Assembly: GCA_963741955.1 (NCBI GenBank)
Contig: CAVUKB010000006.1
Coordinates: 288,001 to 352,000 of the forward strand
Direction: 5' to 3'
Origin: an uncultured Acidobacteriota bacterium
GTDB taxonomy: Bacteria > Acidobacteriota > Thermoanaerobaculia > Gp7-AA8
DNA: 64,000 bases
Shown: positions 9,268-54,944 of the stretch, piece by piece
How positions within the stretch are numbered: position 1 is the stretch's first letter
Layout of the letters: the number at the start of each line of letters is the position of its first letter
Notes under the pieces: model-generated
Seen by the model: the letters and a program-made list of their open reading frames with translations, nothing else
Database searches by the model: none
Told to the model about the DNA's origin: nothing
Made by a program: the position numbers and the translations under genes

Positions 9268-9428
9268 GGAGTCTGCGCGATAGAAACGTCCGTAGCGAGA
9301 AAGCGAAGCAGCGAGGCCAAATTCGTTCGGATTTGAGGTGCGTAGCGGTGGCTACTCGCCGAAAATCGGGGCGGATTTGGACCGCTGATCCGCTTTCGCA
9401 GCAGGACAGTTTCTACCGCGCAGACTCC
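9268..9428. mobile_element. hairpin MITE family A, copy 1 (161 bp, IS1182-type ends)
   Basis: TIR GGAGTCTGCGCGATAGAAAC ... GTTTCTACCGCGCAGACTCC; near-identical to 45167-45327 and 54784-54944. Confidence 0.85.
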
Positions 9429-9430
9429 TG

Positions 9431-9570
9431 ACCCGCATTTCTCACACCGTCTCGGCGAGGGGGCGGAGAGCGGCTTGGATACAGGACGAGCGCAGCTTCG
9501 GCGACGAAGGCATAGTGGTGACTACGTTGAAGAGCAAAATCGTCGTCTGACGCCGCAGACTCCCAAGCTG
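9431..9570. repeat. hairpin element family B, degenerate copy lacking the right TIR
   Basis: Begins ACCCGCATTTCTCACACCGTCTCG and contains GCTTCGGCGACGAAGGCATAGTGGTGACTAC like the copy at 45330-45508. Right end approximate. Confidence 0.7.
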
Positions 9571-37884: not shown

Positions 37885-38052
37885 GATCCTCGATCCTCGA
37901 TCCTCGATCCCCGATCCCCGATCCTCGATCCTCGTTCCCCGATCCTCGATCCCAGATCCTCGATCCTCGATCCTCGATCCTCGATCCTCGATCCTCGATC
38001 CTCGATCCTAGATCCTAGATCCTCGATCCTAGATCCTAGATACTAGATACTA
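37885..38052. repeat. tandem 7-mer array, consensus GATCCTC, x24
   Basis: Variants GATCCCC, GATCCTA, GATACTA; overlaps the stop codon of the decarboxylase gene. Confidence 0.95.
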
Positions 38053-42902: not shown

Positions 42903-43389
42903 CTCTCGAGCCTGGAGCAAAGTCCCCGTGGCCTCGCACTTGCTCCGCGTGCCGAGGGAGACGTCGATGAAACGATTCTTACTCTCCATCGGGATGCTGC
43001 TTCTGATCGCGTCGCCGTGTGCCGCGCAGACGGCGGGGAGCTGGAGCGCGATTCTTTCCGCCGACTGGATCTGGAAAACCGGAACGAACCGGCCCGATCT
43101 CTTCCCCGACGGACAGCAGAACTTCGTCATCCTCGACGTCGGTCTCCAGTCGGGAGGGGGAGGCGGCGGCGCATTGAACTACCGCTTCGCGGATCGATGG
43201 TCGGCCGAAGTGCGTACGTCGGTTCTGTGGCTCCATGCGCATTCGATCGTCCGCCGCGGCGACGCGATCGGCAACGTCGATCTCGGAAAGGTGCGGGTGT
43301 ATCCGCTCACCGCCGTGCTTCAGTACCACTTCGCTCCGATCGGCAGCGTCACTCCGTACATCGGCGCGGGAGGCTCCTGCATCATCGTA

Positions 43390-43569
43390 GCCCGCATTTC
43401 TCACATCATCTCTGCTGCGGAGACGGATAGCGGCCTGTCTGCTGCGTTGCACCCCTGCTTCGGCTCCTCAACATAGTCACCACTATGCCTTCGTCGCCGA
43501 AGCGGGGTACGCCTTGCATCCAGGCTGCTCTCCGCTTCCTCGCGACGAGATGGTGTGAGAAATGCGGGC
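43390..43569 (-). mobile_element. hairpin MITE family B (180 bp), inverted copy
   Basis: TIR GCCCGCATTTCTCACA ... TGTGAGAAATGCGGGC; flanked by TA on both sides. Confidence 0.85.
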
Positions 43570-43571
43570 TA

Positions 43572-45164
43572 GGAGTCTGCGCGGTAGAAACCCGGTTCGC
43601 GGCAAATCGGCATGATAAAAGGTGAATGGTTAGTAGTAACGATAATATGTTAAGATTAGGTCATGCCGACCACGTATAGGCCATACCGACCGGAGCAGTC
43701 GCTGCTGCTTCCGCCCTCGCCATACGAGTGGCTCCCTGAGGGTCACTTGGCGCACTTCGTTTCCGACATGATCGATCAGCTTGATCTGAGTGCATTCTAC
43801 GAGCGGTACAAGGGCGACGGCAGGCGGAAGCAGCCCTACGAGCCGAGGATGATGCTCAAGTTGATCACCTATTCGTACCTGACGGGAACGTTCTCCTCGC
43901 GCAAGATTGCCCGGCGGATCGATGAAGATATCGCCGTCCGGTATCTTGCAGCCGGGAACTTTCCATCGCATCGGACCATCTGCGACTTTCGGCTTGAAAA
44001 CGTGGACGCATTCAGCTCATTGCTGGTCCAGATCATTCGGACCGCTCAGGAGGCAGGGTTAGTTACGCTCGGGAGGATCGCAATCGACGGGTCGAAGGTG
44101 CGAGCGAATGCCAGCAAGCACAAGGCGATGAGCTACGATCGGATGAAGAAGGAAGAAGCGAAGCTCGAGAAGGAGATCGCGGAGATTTTGGCCACAGCGG
44201 CGGAAGAGGATGCCCGGGAGGATGCCGAGTACGGGGTTGATCGACGCGGGGATGAGTTGCCCGAAGAGCTCCAGCGCCGGGAAACACGCATCCGAAAGAT
44301 CAGAGATGCACGAGAGCGACTCGAACAGCGACAGCGGGAACTGGACACGAAGGCTGGTCGCTCCGAAGGCGACGATGATCCGGCCAGGAAGAAGGGTAAG
44401 CCATTCAAACGGAAGTTCGGCGTACCTGAGGACAAAGCGCAAGAGAACTTCACCGATTCCGAGAGCCGAATCATGAAGTCCCAGGAAGGATTTCAGCAGT
44501 GCTACAACGCGCAGATCGCAGTCGATGCCGATAACCAACTCATCGTCGGATTCGAGATCACACAATCTGCGGCGGACAGCGGATCACTCGTGCCTTTGGT
44601 CGAGGTGGTCGAACAGAATTGCGAAACAAGCCCCGACCAGGTTGTTGCCGACACCGGTTACAAGTCGGAAAGCTCGTTCATCGAGTTGGAGGAGAAGAAG
44701 ATCGATGCGTATGTTTCTCTCGGACGAGAAGGCAAAGAAACCGCAGCTGAGACGACGCTCCCCGCTACTCTGCGGATGAAGCAGAAGTTGGACTCACCTG
44801 CAGGCAAGGCGGTCTATCGCCGGCGAAAGGCGATCGTTGAGCCGGTGTTTGGCTGGGTCAAAAACGTTCTCGGCTTTCGACGATTCAGTCTCCGCGGGAC
44901 GCGCAAAGTTGCCGGCGAATGGGCTCTGGTGTGCCTGGTGATCAATCTGAAGCGAATGAGCGCTCTGGTTGCGGTCGAATAGCCCCGGCAGAGCAGTATC
45001 CAACCCCGAAAAGTCCCGCCGAGCAAGTGTTTCGCGCTGCCACCTCCCCGAGAACGGCTCCATCAACCCCAAGGCGCTTCGATGGCCCGGTTCTGCCGCT
45101 CGCGAGCGGACGTCACCCGAGATCATCAGGAAGCGCCGAACTTACGTCCTATCGCGCAGACTCC
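43572..45164 (+). mobile_element. IS1182-family insertion sequence (1593 bp)
   Basis: TIR GGAGTCTGCGCG(G/A)TAG at both ends; TA on both flanks; single transposase ORF. Confidence 0.92.
43663..44982 (+). CDS. IS1182-family transposase
   Basis: EWLPEGHLA, YEPRMMLK, SSRKI, IDGSKVRANAS, TDSESRIM, ADTGY and YRRRKAIVEPVFG. Confidence 0.95.
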   Translation: MPTTYRPYRPEQSLLLPPSPYEWLPEGHLAHFVSDMIDQLDLSAFYERYKGDGRRKQPYEPRMMLKLITYSYLTGTFSSRKIARRIDEDIAVRYLAAGNFPSHRTICDFRLENVDAFSSLLVQIIRTAQEAGLVTLGRIAIDGSKVRANASKHKAMSYDRMKKEEAKLEKEIAEILATAAEEDAREDAEYGVDRRGDELPEELQRRETRIRKIRDARERLEQRQRELDTKAGRSEGDDDPARKKGKPFKRKFGVPEDKAQENFTDSESRIMKSQEGFQQCYNAQIAVDADNQLIVGFEITQSAADSGSLVPLVEVVEQNCETSPDQVVADTGYKSESSFIELEEKKIDAYVSLGREGKETAAETTLPATLRMKQKLDSPAGKAVYRRRKAIVEPVFGWVKNVLGFRRFSLRGTRKVAGEWALVCLVINLKRMSALVAVE

Positions 45165-45166
45165 TA

Positions 45167-45327
45167 GGAGTCTGCGCGATAGAAACGTCCGTAGCGAGAA
45201 AGCGGAGCAACGAGGCCAAATTCGTTCGGATTTGAGGTGCGTAGCGGTGGCTACTCGCCGAAAATCCGGGCGGATTTGGACCGTTGATCCGCTTTCGCAG
45301 TAGGACAGTTTCTACCGCGCAGACTCC
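45167..45327. mobile_element. hairpin MITE family A, copy 2 (161 bp)
   Basis: Same TIRs as the adjacent IS1182; TA flanks. Confidence 0.9.
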
Positions 45328-45329
45328 TA

Positions 45330-45508
45330 GCCCGCATTTCTCACACCGTCTCGTCGCGAGGGGGCGGAGAACGGCCTGGATACAAGGTGCGCGCAGCTTC
45401 GGCGACGAAGGCATAGTGGTGACTATGTCGAGGAGCCGAAGATGTGCACAACGTAGTAGACAGGCCGCTATCCGTCTCCGCAGCAGAGATAGTGTGAGAA
45501 ATGCAGGC
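45330..45508 (+). mobile_element. hairpin MITE family B (179 bp)
   Basis: TIR GCCCGCATTTCTCACAC ... GTGTGAGAAATGCAGGC; TA flanks. Confidence 0.85.
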
Positions 45509-45795
45509 TAGGAGCGTTCGAGAACGGCGTTCCCGGCGACGGAGGTCTCGGTGACGACACCGGACTGGTGCTCAACACGGGGCTCGACGTCCCGATGGGA
45601 AGACAATGGGGAGTCAATCTCGACGCGAAGTACATCCCGATCGAATCGGGAGCCGGGTTCGACGACGGGCACGGCTTCCGGCTCGAGCCCACCATCGCGT
45701 CCGCGGGCGTAAGATACACGTTCTGATTCCTCCTCATCGCGGCTGTGGCGCGTTCGATCGGTCACCGCACGGGCGGAATCGATGGAGATTCGCAC

Positions 45796-48700
45796 GTGTC
45801 CGAGCGACCGAAAGAGACCCCGCCAGGATCCCCGCGGCGCCAGCTCCGCGAGTTGCTCCGGCTCCTCTATCGCAACACGGGCGAGATCTTCGCCACCGGT
45901 CCGGTGCAGCTCTACATCGCCCGTTACTCGAATGGCGGGGCGTACTGGGTCAGTGACAACATCCGTGCCCTGACCGGTTTCGAAGAATCGATGTTCACCA
46001 GCTCCTACGACTTCTGGACCTCTCGGCTCCATCCCGACGACCGGAGGTCCGCGGTCGACGCGATCACCGGGCTCGCGCGCGGAGAGACGGTGACCATCGA
46101 ATACCGGTGGCTCGCTCGTGACGACACCTATCGGTGGTTTCTCGACCAGTTCGTACGCATCGATACACCGGACGAGCCGCTCCTGGTCGGAGCAGTCATC
46201 GATGTGACCGAGTCGCACGAAAAGGCCGAAGAGCTGATCGCCGCGAATCAGAGGCTCGACGCGGTCTTCGAGGCGTCGCCGTACGCGATCATCGCGATCG
46301 ATTCCCACGAGCGTGTCCAGCTGTGGAACGACGCCGCGACCCGGATGTTCGGCTGGAGCCCGGAAGAAGCGATTGGAGAGAAGCTGCCGACGATTCCCGA
46401 GGAGCTCCGGGCGGAAGCGGACGAGCTCCGGCGGCGTGCCAACGGCGGCGAGCGGGTCACGAACTTCGTGACCCGGCGACGCCGTAAGGATGGATCGGTC
46501 TTCGACGTCTCACTCTCGGCCGCACCTCTTTTCGACCGCCATGGACTTCCGGCCGGGACGATGGGAATGCTGGTCGACATCACCGAACAGAAGGAAAAGG
46601 ACGATGCGCTCCGGTTCCAGGCCAGTCTTCTCGGCGCAGTCAACCAGGCCATCATCGTGAGCGATCCCGACGGAAGGATCGTCTACTGGAACCGCTACGC
46701 AGGGGAGCTGTTCGGGTGGACCGCCGGTGAAGCACTCGGCCGTGACGTGGTGGAGCTGACCGTGCCCGAAATCTCGACGCAGCAGGCCGCCGGGATCATG
46801 GACGCGCTTCGGCGCGGTGCGAGCTGGCGCGGCGAGTTCACCGTGCGCCACCGCAGCGGCAGGCCCGTACCGCTCCTCGTGAGCGACTCTCCGATCCTCG
46901 ATGACGAAGGCCGCCTCACCGCAATCGTCGGCGTCTCGGTGGATCTTTCCGAACAGCAGGCGGCAGACGAGGCGCTTCGAAGAAGCGAGGAGCGGTTCCG
47001 CGCACTCTTCGAACAGAGCCCGATCGCGACGTTCCTCTTCCGGGCGGTGGATCGCGATTTCGAGTTGATCGACTTCAATCCCGCCGCGCGCGAGCTCACT
47101 GCGACCGTCCCTCCTCCTTACCTCGGGATGCGTGCATCGGAACGATATGCGGAATACCCGGCCGCACTCGAGGACATGCGCGCCACCGACGAGACGGGCT
47201 ATCCGCGAGAAAGAGCGCTCGAGTACGTTCTTCCCGACGGACGGAAGCGCGCGATCTTCGTGAATTTCGCGCGGGTGGATCGCGGACTCCTGATGCTGCA
47301 CGTTCGCGATCTCACCGAGCAGAAAGCCACGGAACAAGCCCTCCGGTTCTCGAATCAGGCGCTCTCCGCGCTCTTCCAGGCCTCGCCGGTCGCGATCATC
47401 GCACTCGACCGTGAGCGGAACGTCCAGGCGTGGAACGCGGAAGCGGAACGGATGTACGGATGGCGCGCCGAAGAGGTGAACGGCCGTCCGATTCCCTTCC
47501 TCACCAGAGAGCAGACGCACGGCCCCGATTCCCTGATCTCGAAAGTCCTAGGGGGAGAAGGAGTGACGAATTTCGAGCTGTCCAGGCCTCGACGGGATGG
47601 TTCGGAAGTGGTCGTCTCGCTCTCCGCGAGTCCGCTTTTCGATAGTGAAGGCCGGATCTCCGGACTGGTCTCGGCTGCAGTGGACATCACCAGCAGAAAG
47701 GCGATCGAAGACGAGCTCCGCGCCCGGGCGGCCCAGGAATCAGCGGTCGCAGAGATTGCGGAGCTCGCGCTTCAGGGGTCCGATCTCGAGCGGCTGATGA
47801 ATCGCTCCTGCGAGGTGGTCGCAAACGCGCTCGACGTCCGTTTCAGCTGGATCGAAGTTCCTCTCCCGGACGGAAGGCTCGAAATTCGTGCCGGTACCGG
47901 ATGGCGAAAGAAGGGAGTCGGGCGGAGCCGAACCTCCGGAGGAATGGAGTCGCAGGGAGGGGTGACGCTGAATGCCGGAACGCCGATCGTCTCCGAGGAC
48001 GTGATGAACGATCCACGGCTCCGCCCTTCTCCGATTCACGAGCGCTACCGGATCGTCAGCGCAATGAGTGCGGTCATCCCCGGACGAGAGCGTCCGTTCG
48101 GCGTGATCGAAGCGAACGACACGGCAAAGCGTTTTTTCGCGGAGCACGACGTGAACTTTCTGGTCGCCGCAGCTGGCGTCCTCGGAACCGCCATCGAGCA
48201 CCTCCAGTCGCAGGAAGCGCTGGCCGATCGCGAGGCAACGCTCCGGCTCCTCATCCAGCAGATCCCCGCGGTGGTCTTCACGACGGATCTCGAGATGCGT
48301 CTGACTTCGAGTATCGGTCTCGGGATGCCCGGAGGATCTTCTCCCTTCGCCTCGATCGGCCGGAGACTCGGAGAGATCGCCGGCGACAATCCCCAGGCCG
48401 GCGCAGCGATCGAAGCTCAGACGCGTGCATTCCGGGGCGACCCCACTCGTTATGAAGTCCTCTGGCGAGGGCGGGCTCTGGAAGTCCACGTCGAACCGTT
48501 CCGGACCCAGAGCGGAGAGATCACCGGCTCGGTCGGAGTGGCGGTCGACATCACCGAACGGAAGCAACACGAAGCAGAGTTGCAGGAATCGCGAGAGCGT
48601 CTGCAGGCGCTCTCGACTCGTGTCCTGACCATTCAGGAGGACGAGCGGACGAGCATCGCACGCGAGGTGCACGACGAGCTCGGACAGGCGCTGACCGCAC

Positions 48701-49290
48701 TGAAGCTGAACGTGGCTCTGGTGGAGCAGAACCTGAAGAACGGGAAAATCCGCGAGCTGGGAGAGCGCTGCAGCGAGATGCACGGAATCATCGACGAAAC
48801 GATCGAATCGGTCCGGCGTATCGCCAGTCAACTCAATCCGCCGCTGCTCGAGCACCTCGGGCTCGCTGCCGCGATCGAAGAAGAGGCGCGTCGGTTCGAG
48901 CGAAGGAGCGGAATCGCCACGCGGGTGAGGATGCCCGAAGGAACCCTGGAGCTCGACCGCCATCGCTCGACCGCCATCTTCAGGATGGTCCAGGAAGCAC
49001 TGACGAATGTTGCACGCCATGCACGCGCGACCTCGGTCGAGCTGACGCTCTCCGAGACGGATGGTCGCCTGCGAATCGAAATCGAGGACAATGGGCGAGG
49101 AATCACAGACGACGAACGCCTCGCCTCCTCCTCTCTCGGACTGATCGGGATGCGGGAGCGCATCCGCTCGCTGGAAGGCGAGCTGCAGATCGAAGGACGA
49201 CACGATGCCGGAACGAAGATCATCGCCACCATCCCCGCCAGGCCGGCTGACGCCGGACAGCGCCGGGACCATTCGGGTCCTGATCGCTGA
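45796..49290 (+). CDS. multi-PAS/GAF sensor histidine kinase (HisKA_3, UhpB/NarX type)
   Basis: About six PAS/PAC units and a GAF domain; ERTSIAREVHDELGQ, QEALTNVARHA, DNGRG and GLIGMRER. Confidence 0.93.
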   Translation: MSERPKETPPGSPRRQLRELLRLLYRNTGEIFATGPVQLYIARYSNGGAYWVSDNIRALTGFEESMFTSSYDFWTSRLHPDDRRSAVDAITGLARGETVTIEYRWLARDDTYRWFLDQFVRIDTPDEPLLVGAVIDVTESHEKAEELIAANQRLDAVFEASPYAIIAIDSHERVQLWNDAATRMFGWSPEEAIGEKLPTIPEELRAEADELRRRANGGERVTNFVTRRRRKDGSVFDVSLSAAPLFDRHGLPAGTMGMLVDITEQKEKDDALRFQASLLGAVNQAIIVSDPDGRIVYWNRYAGELFGWTAGEALGRDVVELTVPEISTQQAAGIMDALRRGASWRGEFTVRHRSGRPVPLLVSDSPILDDEGRLTAIVGVSVDLSEQQAADEALRRSEERFRALFEQSPIATFLFRAVDRDFELIDFNPAARELTATVPPPYLGMRASERYAEYPAALEDMRATDETGYPRERALEYVLPDGRKRAIFVNFARVDRGLLMLHVRDLTEQKATEQALRFSNQALSALFQASPVAIIALDRERNVQAWNAEAERMYGWRAEEVNGRPIPFLTREQTHGPDSLISKVLGGEGVTNFELSRPRRDGSEVVVSLSASPLFDSEGRISGLVSAAVDITSRKAIEDELRARAAQESAVAEIAELALQGSDLERLMNRSCEVVANALDVRFSWIEVPLPDGRLEIRAGTGWRKKGVGRSRTSGGMESQGGVTLNAGTPIVSEDVMNDPRLRPSPIHERYRIVSAMSAVIPGRERPFGVIEANDTAKRFFAEHDVNFLVAAAGVLGTAIEHLQSQEALADREATLRLLIQQIPAVVFTTDLEMRLTSSIGLGMPGGSSPFASIGRRLGEIAGDNPQAGAAIEAQTRAFRGDPTRYEVLWRGRALEVHVEPFRTQSGEITGSVGVAVDITERKQHEAELQESRERLQALSTRVLTIQEDERTSIAREVHDELGQALTALKLNVALVEQNLKNGKIRELGERCSEMHGIIDETIESVRRIASQLNPPLLEHLGLAAAIEEEARRFERRSGIATRVRMPEGTLELDRHRSTAIFRMVQEALTNVARHARATSVELTLSETDGRLRIEIEDNGRGITDDERLASSSLGLIGMRERIRSLEGELQIEGRHDAGTKIIATIPARPADAGQRRDHSGPDR

Positions 49291-54783: not shown

Positions 54784-54944
54784 GGAGTCTGCGCGGTAGA
54801 AACGTCCGTAGCGAGAGAGCGGAGCAGCGAGGCCAAATTCGTTCGGATTTGAGGTGCGTAGCGGTGGCTACTCGCCGAAAATCCGGACCGATTTGGACCG
54901 CTGATCCGCTTTCGCAGTAGGACAGTTTCTACCGCGCAGACTCC
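54784..54944. mobile_element. hairpin MITE family A, copy 3 (161 bp)
   Basis: TIRs as above; TA duplication at 54782-54783 and 54945-54946. Confidence 0.9.

Follow-up and report, generated by a model that had tools for sequence, protein, structure and literature searches.

Four transposable elements end to end at one TA inside an ompW gene of an uncultured Acidobacteriota bacterium: probable serial insertion at a shared, scarce target

How did four mobile elements come to stand end to end, spaced by TA dinucleotides, inside a single ompW gene? The question was raised by a 64,000-nt stretch of DNA (the window hereafter) from an uncultured Acidobacteriota bacterium (Thermoanaerobaculia; Gp7-AA8; GCA_963741955.1, contig CAVUKB010000006.1, positions 288,001-352,000 of the forward strand). 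The elements are an insertion sequence (IS), which we assign to the IS1182 family, one MITE (miniature inverted-repeat transposable element) of 161 bp, here called A, and two copies of another MITE of 179-180 bp, here called B. We found that the stack in all likelihood records four separate recent insertions by two unrelated cut-and-paste transposon families that use one common target. Stacking of this kind follows directly from known properties of such elements and is ordinary transposon behavior; at the ompW locus one can see cleanly, in a natural setting, how transposons pile up end to end when their target is both specific and scarce.

Anatomy of the stack and identity of its elements

The features are as follows, in window coordinates and with the strand where there is one.

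42967..43389, + strand: ompW 5' part, 141 codons (423 nt), signal peptide to mid-barrel
43390..43569, - strand: B MITE copy 1, 180 bp, IS1380-derived as judged by its ends, terminal inverted repeats GCCCGCATTTCTCACA; flanks GTAG and CTAG
43570..43571, no strand: sequence TA common to B copy 1 and the IS
43572..45164, + strand: IS of the IS1182 family, 1593 bp, with imperfect inverted repeats at its termini that start GGAGTCTGCGCG
43663..44982, + strand: transposase gene, 439 amino acids, IS1182 family by NF033551
45165..45166, no strand: sequence TA common to the IS and A
45167..45327, + strand: A MITE, 161 bp, with the terminal 16-20 nt of the IS at both ends
45328..45329, no strand: sequence TA common to A and B copy 2
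45330..45508, + strand: B MITE copy 2, 179 bp
45509..45510, no strand: final sequence TA, duplicate of 43388-43389
45511..45726, + strand: ompW 3' part, 71 codons and stop, in a frame that matches the 5' part

All four elements in ompW begin with G and end with C, and none is nested within another, as established from the sequence and by script. An earlier sequence-only reading of this DNA had described five TAs separating four intact, non-nested elements, and that layout was borne out to the base. It had also held that elements with G...C ends regenerate CTAG at every junction. This was correct at 43569, 45164, 45327 and 45508, four of the five junctions, and failed at the leftmost, which is GTAG. 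The first TA (43388-43389) forms the end of the ompW codon GTA, and the gene reads ...ATC GTA and resumes with GGA GCG after the last TA. The two ompW parts were analyzed separately and never joined; both matched the Pfam OmpW model PF03922 (cut-off 24 bits), the 5' part over profile positions 45-108 with 40.8 bits and the 3' part over positions 131-195 of 195 with 29.7 bits. We assign the interrupted gene to the OmpW family of outer-membrane proteins. No orthologous empty site comparable as DNA was present in 30 related genomes, the nearest OmpW-like match being just 37% identical, and protein alignment was therefore used in place of a DNA comparison. A 220-amino-acid OmpW homologue from a related genome aligned to the end of the N-terminal part and to the later C-terminal part; the 14 residues that follow the break were misplaced by the aligner and fit by length alone (14 vs 18 in the homologue). 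Two other OmpW-like matches were found in the same genome, which comprises 5,435,906 bp in 16 contigs and served for all genome-wide counts below.

The 439-amino-acid transposase scored 379.5 bits against NCBIfam model NF033551 (IS1182 family, cut-off 270) and far under the cut-offs of the IS5 models; its Pfam domains were DUF772, DDE_Tnp_1 and DDE_Tnp_1_6. The 1593-bp element, one transposase gene between terminal inverted repeats with ends GGAGTCTGCGCG.../...CGCGCAGACTCC, thus has the features by which the IS1182 family is recognized, and we classify it as an IS of that family. It occurs in 13 full copies in the genome, 8 of which, the stack copy included, are 100% identical, and 12 of the 13 have TA on both sides. 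A and this IS have in common just the terminal 16-20 nt at each end, and since A carries nothing else of the IS it is a MITE of the IS1182-type element; its non-coding status was taken from its size. A profile search gave 127 non-overlapping matches to A, 70 of them complete at both ends. Where an A copy had TA on both sides, the flanks were CTAG/CTAG in 40 of 44 cases, and the remaining 4 varied in the outer base alone, in keeping with G...C ends that are fixed and a duplication of 2 bp.

Long-range pairing of B-type termini detected a second IS, of 1719 bp, with the termini of B. Of its six copies five are full and one is truncated, and they are 100% identical over the aligned length; its 458-amino-acid protein scored 390.3 bits against NF033539 (IS1380, cut-off 180) and 506.8 bits against PF13701. 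Because B and this IS1380-family element have the same 16-nt termini, B is its MITE. B gave 142 non-overlapping matches in the profile search, 77 of them complete at both ends, and the IS1380-type IS gave 6 matches. Both MITEs are largely palindromic, since A and B each matched their own profile on both strands. We refer to the IS1182-type element and A together as A-class, and to the IS1380-type element and B as B-class.

All components of the stack are young. Seven other copies match the IS exactly, identical twins of A and of B copy 2 lie at C4:59918 and C6:178872, respectively, and the nearest relative of B copy 1, at C7:1189324, is 98.3% identical.

Junctions, targets and scarcity of CTAG across the genome

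The sequence-only reading had proposed a survey of the other copies, and both adjacency and CTAG preference were found in them. Among 288 elements with 437 complete termini, 100 termini, that is, 50 junctions, adjoined another element at exactly 2 nt. Where complete termini lay no more than 200 nt apart, the gap was exactly 2 nt in these 50 cases and 41, 70 and 170 nt in one further case each; the pattern is far beyond chance. Counted independently by terminus motif, the two-nt junctions numbered 57, and spacings of 3, 41 and 56 nt turned up once each. The junction dinucleotide was TA in 39 of the 50, and most others were one-step variants. Of the 39 arrays that the junctions formed, at many unrelated loci, 31 were pairs, 5 triples and 3 quadruples. 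In addition to the ompW stack, the quadruples lay at C5:351659 (A-IS-B-B) and at C7:654910-659981, the latter spanning 5072 bp in the order IS1182-type, IS1380-type, IS1182-type, A, with TA between each. The third IS copy of the C7 stack (99.6% identical, one indel) has a longest open reading frame (ORF) of 371 amino acids and is probably frameshifted. Two further cases were seen in the window: at 9268-9561 there is an older A/B pair in which the dinucleotide at the junction is now a decayed TG, and at 54784-54944 a solo A with flanks GCCCTA...TAGCCC.

Neighboring elements inserted independently, as their divergence indicates. A copies beside 100%-identical IS copies were 95.7-99.4% alike and B copies beside them 88-95.5% alike, and this divergence of the neighbors of identical IS copies points to separate insertions. 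Similarly, A/B pairs occurred in all four relative orientations.

These data also bear on the proposal of the sequence-only reading that the two inverted B copies bracket the transposase as a composite transposon, in which case the IS1380-type transposase would have moved B-IS-A-B into ompW as one unit via the outer B ends. At either end of the block the B termini do point outward, and the transposase could come from the IS1380-type IS, whose five full-length copies are 100% identical and carry these termini. However, among the 39 arrays neither the block nor its order recurs, the two B copies are only 87.8% identical to each other and have different nearest relatives, and the A copy has an identical twin of its own. 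The outer flanks, GTAG and CTAG, are not a concordant 4-bp duplication either, though 7 other B copies are likewise unequal. Neither movement as a unit, nor one outer duplication, nor more than one copy of the unit was found, and we consider transport as a composite transposon very unlikely.

What the two families share is their target. Among 159 free A-class termini the base at position -3 (before TA) was C in 89%; among 177 free B-class termini it was C in 62% and T in 26%. These shares identify CTAG as the target of the A-class and YTAR as that of the B-class. CTAG is scarce: the genome holds 798 sites, an observed/expected ratio of 0.043 from base composition, and 150 of the 798, about a fifth, lie at A or B termini. 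Two other palindromes were also low (TTAA at 0.071 and TATA at 0.15), and GATC and TCGA were about 3.7-fold over-represented genome-wide. In the window, 6 of 17 CTAG sites belonged to a tandem 7-base unit at 37960-38050 (GATCCTC drifting to GATCCTA/GATACTA). All-against-all comparison of the 120-nt surroundings of the 648 CTAG sites outside detected A or B termini gave one connected component, of 111 sites, which may represent a further repeat family or undetected termini.

The following sequence of events would account for the stack. A-class elements insert almost solely at C-TA-G, duplicating TA and bringing G...C termini, and B-class elements at Y-TA-R, duplicating the target. Each insertion turns one target into two, flanking the newcomer on either side, with regeneration either via the G...C termini and TA duplication or via a 4-bp duplication. 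Because CTAG is nearly absent from the genome, later arrivals often land exactly beside earlier ones over a common TA. In ompW, the first insertion may have been at G-TA-G, and further elements would then have entered the CTAGs so made, with the IS probably the last to arrive, at the CTAG where B copy 1 met A. We infer this order of arrival, and that no further mechanism is required.

The numbers agree with this account under an urn model that, for every insertion, draws one of all the target sites at random. With 650-1200 free targets at the start the model predicted 55-88 junctions, compared with the 50 observed; with all 2691 YTAR sites it predicted 28. As the first of these settings predicts as many junctions as were seen, or more, the 50 would need no extra attraction. 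The self-perpetuating landing pad envisaged in the sequence-only reading therefore survives as a passive result of target choice, consistent with the 39 arrays and with the dominance of C before TA at free A-class termini.

Neighbor choice, read support and flanks

Several points weigh against this explanation. (i) The read data, which came from three public runs of one soil-metagenome study in the form of short contigs, cover only the two outer junctions of the stack, not its internal order, and stop inside the repeats, and these contigs may derive from the same data as the assembly. (ii) The flanks of B copy 1 are unequal (GTAG/CTAG), unlike those of a strict 4-bp duplication. (iii) Of 13 IS copies, 10 adjoin another element, vs a CTAG junction share of about 19-25% (p 1.3e-4). 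(iv) The shortage of A/A and especially of B/B junctions is explained in part only. (v) The half-site matrix presented below was learned from the same genome only, and the sites that it treats as free are survivors. (vi) The proxy for coding-likeness, GC by codon position, is crude, with 62% of random positions coding-like on both sides; by this proxy there was no sign of selection as a driver of clustering, and both flanks were coding-like at 21% of 115 insertion loci vs 26% of 644 free CTAG sites.

The first point invites the question of whether the stack is an assembly artefact, in which repeat copies of a metagenome-assembled genome (MAG) were joined wrongly. The DNA comes from a soil metagenome, the stack is spanned by none of the public contigs, and read depth in repeats sums many copies. 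Against this, on either side of the stack a public contig runs between ompW and B (record 1 up to 43417 and record 8 from 45461), the assembly resolved 13 IS copies in 16 contigs and contains fifty junctions of the same type, and the same junction recurs in further genomes, some of them assembled to chromosome level, and on a complete plasmid (see below). We give an artefact hardly any credence. Two contig joints, 43572>45271 and 45206>45297, were left unused; their short sides (25-26 nt) lie in repeats and probably come from other copies.

With regard to the choice of neighbors, the junctions comprised 42 A/B, 7 A/A and 1 B/B, vs about 12, 25 and 13 expected (p 4e-6), and 15 of 26 termini of the IS1182-type IS lay beside another element, vs about 20% of MITE termini. 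Further analysis of host flanks suggested a likely factor. GGGCTA was present in 10 of 65 A-class host half-sites that were not B-like, vs 40 of the 1275 at free CTAG sites (odds ratio 5.6, p 8e-5), and two A copies had GGGCTA on both sides. When free half-sites were scored with a log-odds matrix built from these host flanks, the B terminus (...GCGGGC, followed by TA) reached their 99.4th percentile and the A terminus their 74th. B ends are thus preferred landing sites for IS1182-type elements: because the B terminus ends in GGGC, which IS1182-type elements favor beside TA, A-class elements land by B ends above the share expected from site number. We ascribe the excess of neighbors of the IS copies to this half-site preference. 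As for the shortage of like-like junctions, above all B/B, our guess is that adjacent like repeats may be unstable and lost.

A more elaborate possibility is an active partnership or adaptive switch, in which the ends recruit complexes or exclude their own kind, or in which excision controls the porin reversibly, as the sequence-only reading had supposed in suggesting that precise excision could switch the porin back on. The excess of mixed junctions and the 10 of 13 IS copies do exceed a plain site-share model, and the two IS lineages abut in two phyla. On the other hand, the G-rich preference measured at host sites that are not B-like already places B ends near the top of free half-sites, the arrays lie at many unrelated loci, and with two further OmpW-like matches in the genome the loss of the ompW in the stack need not matter. 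No contig joining 43389 to 45511, as expected from an empty-site allele, was found in the three runs, whose contigs drop rare variants and of which none spans the stack. We found no support for the porin switch, and regard partnership or switch as improbable; separate insertion at a shared target, biased toward B ends, is preferred.

The flanks of B-class copies were less uniform than those of A. Of 31 copies with TA on both sides, 14 had CTAG/CTAG and 17 did not. Eight of these 17 showed concordant 4-bp duplications other than CTAG, among them two IS1380-type copies, otherwise identical to the reference copy, flanked by TTAG/TTAG and CTAA/CTAA. Another 8 of the 17, B copy 1 included, had the target base outside and C or G beside the element, and 1 showed the reverse. 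A strict 4-bp duplication for all elements was ruled out by GTAG at the left of the stack with CTAG at the other four junctions. Nor can the B-class follow a strict 2-bp rule with invariant G...C ends, given the TTAG/TTAG and CTAA/CTAA flanks. By analogy, a piggyBac-like carry-over of bases from the donor flank would explain the B-class flanks, which we put forward as a hypothesis only. The CCC...GGG ends of the elements beside the target resemble those of piggyBac. As with piggyBac and its TTAA, the target of the B-class IS, which matches IS1380, is a 4-bp palindrome with a central TA; the difference is that it is YTAR, mostly CTAG, rather than TTAA, and that the mechanism here would be read from flanks only. 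IS1380 transposases have been used as the prokaryotic outgroup of piggyBac (PMC10813416).

By the proxy used above, 46% of the 644 free CTAG sites were coding-like on one side only, and many may lie at gene ends, as C followed by a TAG stop codon. A G-first element inserted at such a C+TAG gene end would keep the stop codon.

Recurrence in other genomes and comparison with known systems

The junction of a B end, TA and an A start was searched with up to 3 mismatches in 400 other genomes of the class and was found in 10, while the reversed control gave 0 everywhere. The exact 27-mer junction occurred in 27 stretches of species genomes, labelled as Thermoanaerobaculia, Terriglobia and other Acidobacteriota, as Vreelandella (Halomonas), Marinobacter and uncultured Gammaproteobacteria and, for one contig, as a haloarchaeal MAG. 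On a complete plasmid of Halomonas sp. KO116 (NZ_CP011053.1, 213700-217500) a full IS1182-type element adjoins a full IS1380-type element across one TA, with the same terminal repeats as here; the IS1182-type element has TA flanks and a transposase that is 58.2% identical. Response-regulator genes are annotated on both sides of this pair.

This recurrence could reflect a standing partnership of two lineages across phyla, one with GGAGTCTGCGCG ends and the other with GCCCG(C/G)ATTTCTCA ends, which, together with donor-flank carry-over by IS1380, we propose tentatively and consider rather unlikely. If it were true, each B-class insertion would plant a preferred landing pad for the IS1182-type element and the pair would spread and stack together; the IS1182/IS1380 pair would co-spread in Acidobacteriota and Gammaproteobacteria, and the B end would be a near-optimal half-site for the IS1182-type element. 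Two leads of interest are that the two families seem to match at the half-site, and how the flanks of IS1380-type copies are patterned.

Among known systems, the IS1182-type element is close to ISKpn6 and other IS1182-family ISs; its transposase is 49.3% identical to ISKpn6-family transposases over 99% of the length. The present element differs in having a 161-bp MITE with >100 matches and a strict CTAG target; ISKpn6 was compared by transposase only, and a literature search for its target and duplication gave neither. Several known systems share single features with the stack. Some elements prefer the sequence of another repeat family and hence cluster, for example ISs such as IS1397, which target repetitive extragenic palindromes (REP) and bacterial interspersed mosaic elements (BIME), and nested plant MITEs. 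In contrast to these, the newcomer in our arrays lies beside the resident at a duplicated target and not inside it, and both partners are transposons with a common target. MITEPsy1 and ISPsy2 of Pseudomonas syringae (IS5 family) form a pair in which a small MITE carries the ends of an IS and inserts at CTAG or YTAA with duplication of the site, and the ISs of that P. syringae genome often adjoin other mobile elements, one tandem insertion included, according to passages of one report (PMC3189936). As far as those passages go, the likeness extends to the MITE-IS pair, the duplicated CTAG-type target and the neighboring mobile elements; the differences are another IS family, a MITE of 100 nt and, within the same passages, no systematic end-to-end arrays that share a dinucleotide. 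The Chunjie MITE was rejected as a comparable element on account of its 9-bp duplications (PMC3184786).

Targets of this type, pairs of MITE and IS, and mobile elements that cluster were already known. New in this work are the counts across the genome, the control by urn model, the preference for GGGC half-sites, the recurrence across phyla and the asymmetry of B-class flanks. Nested or tandem MITEs and the IS1182 or IS1380 families are not mentioned in PMC11602168 outside its supplements, which lay beyond our scope, and with the same limit on supplements our literature search found no description of end-to-end arrays sharing a duplicated dinucleotide. The finding should be of use in annotating repeat-rich environmental genomes, in which arrays of this kind would be read as serial insertions and not as composite transposons or regulatory devices.

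Directly 3' of ompW, the window contains an ORF of 1181 amino acids (45745-49290, + strand) that resembles, from sequence alone, a multi-PAS sensor histidine kinase.

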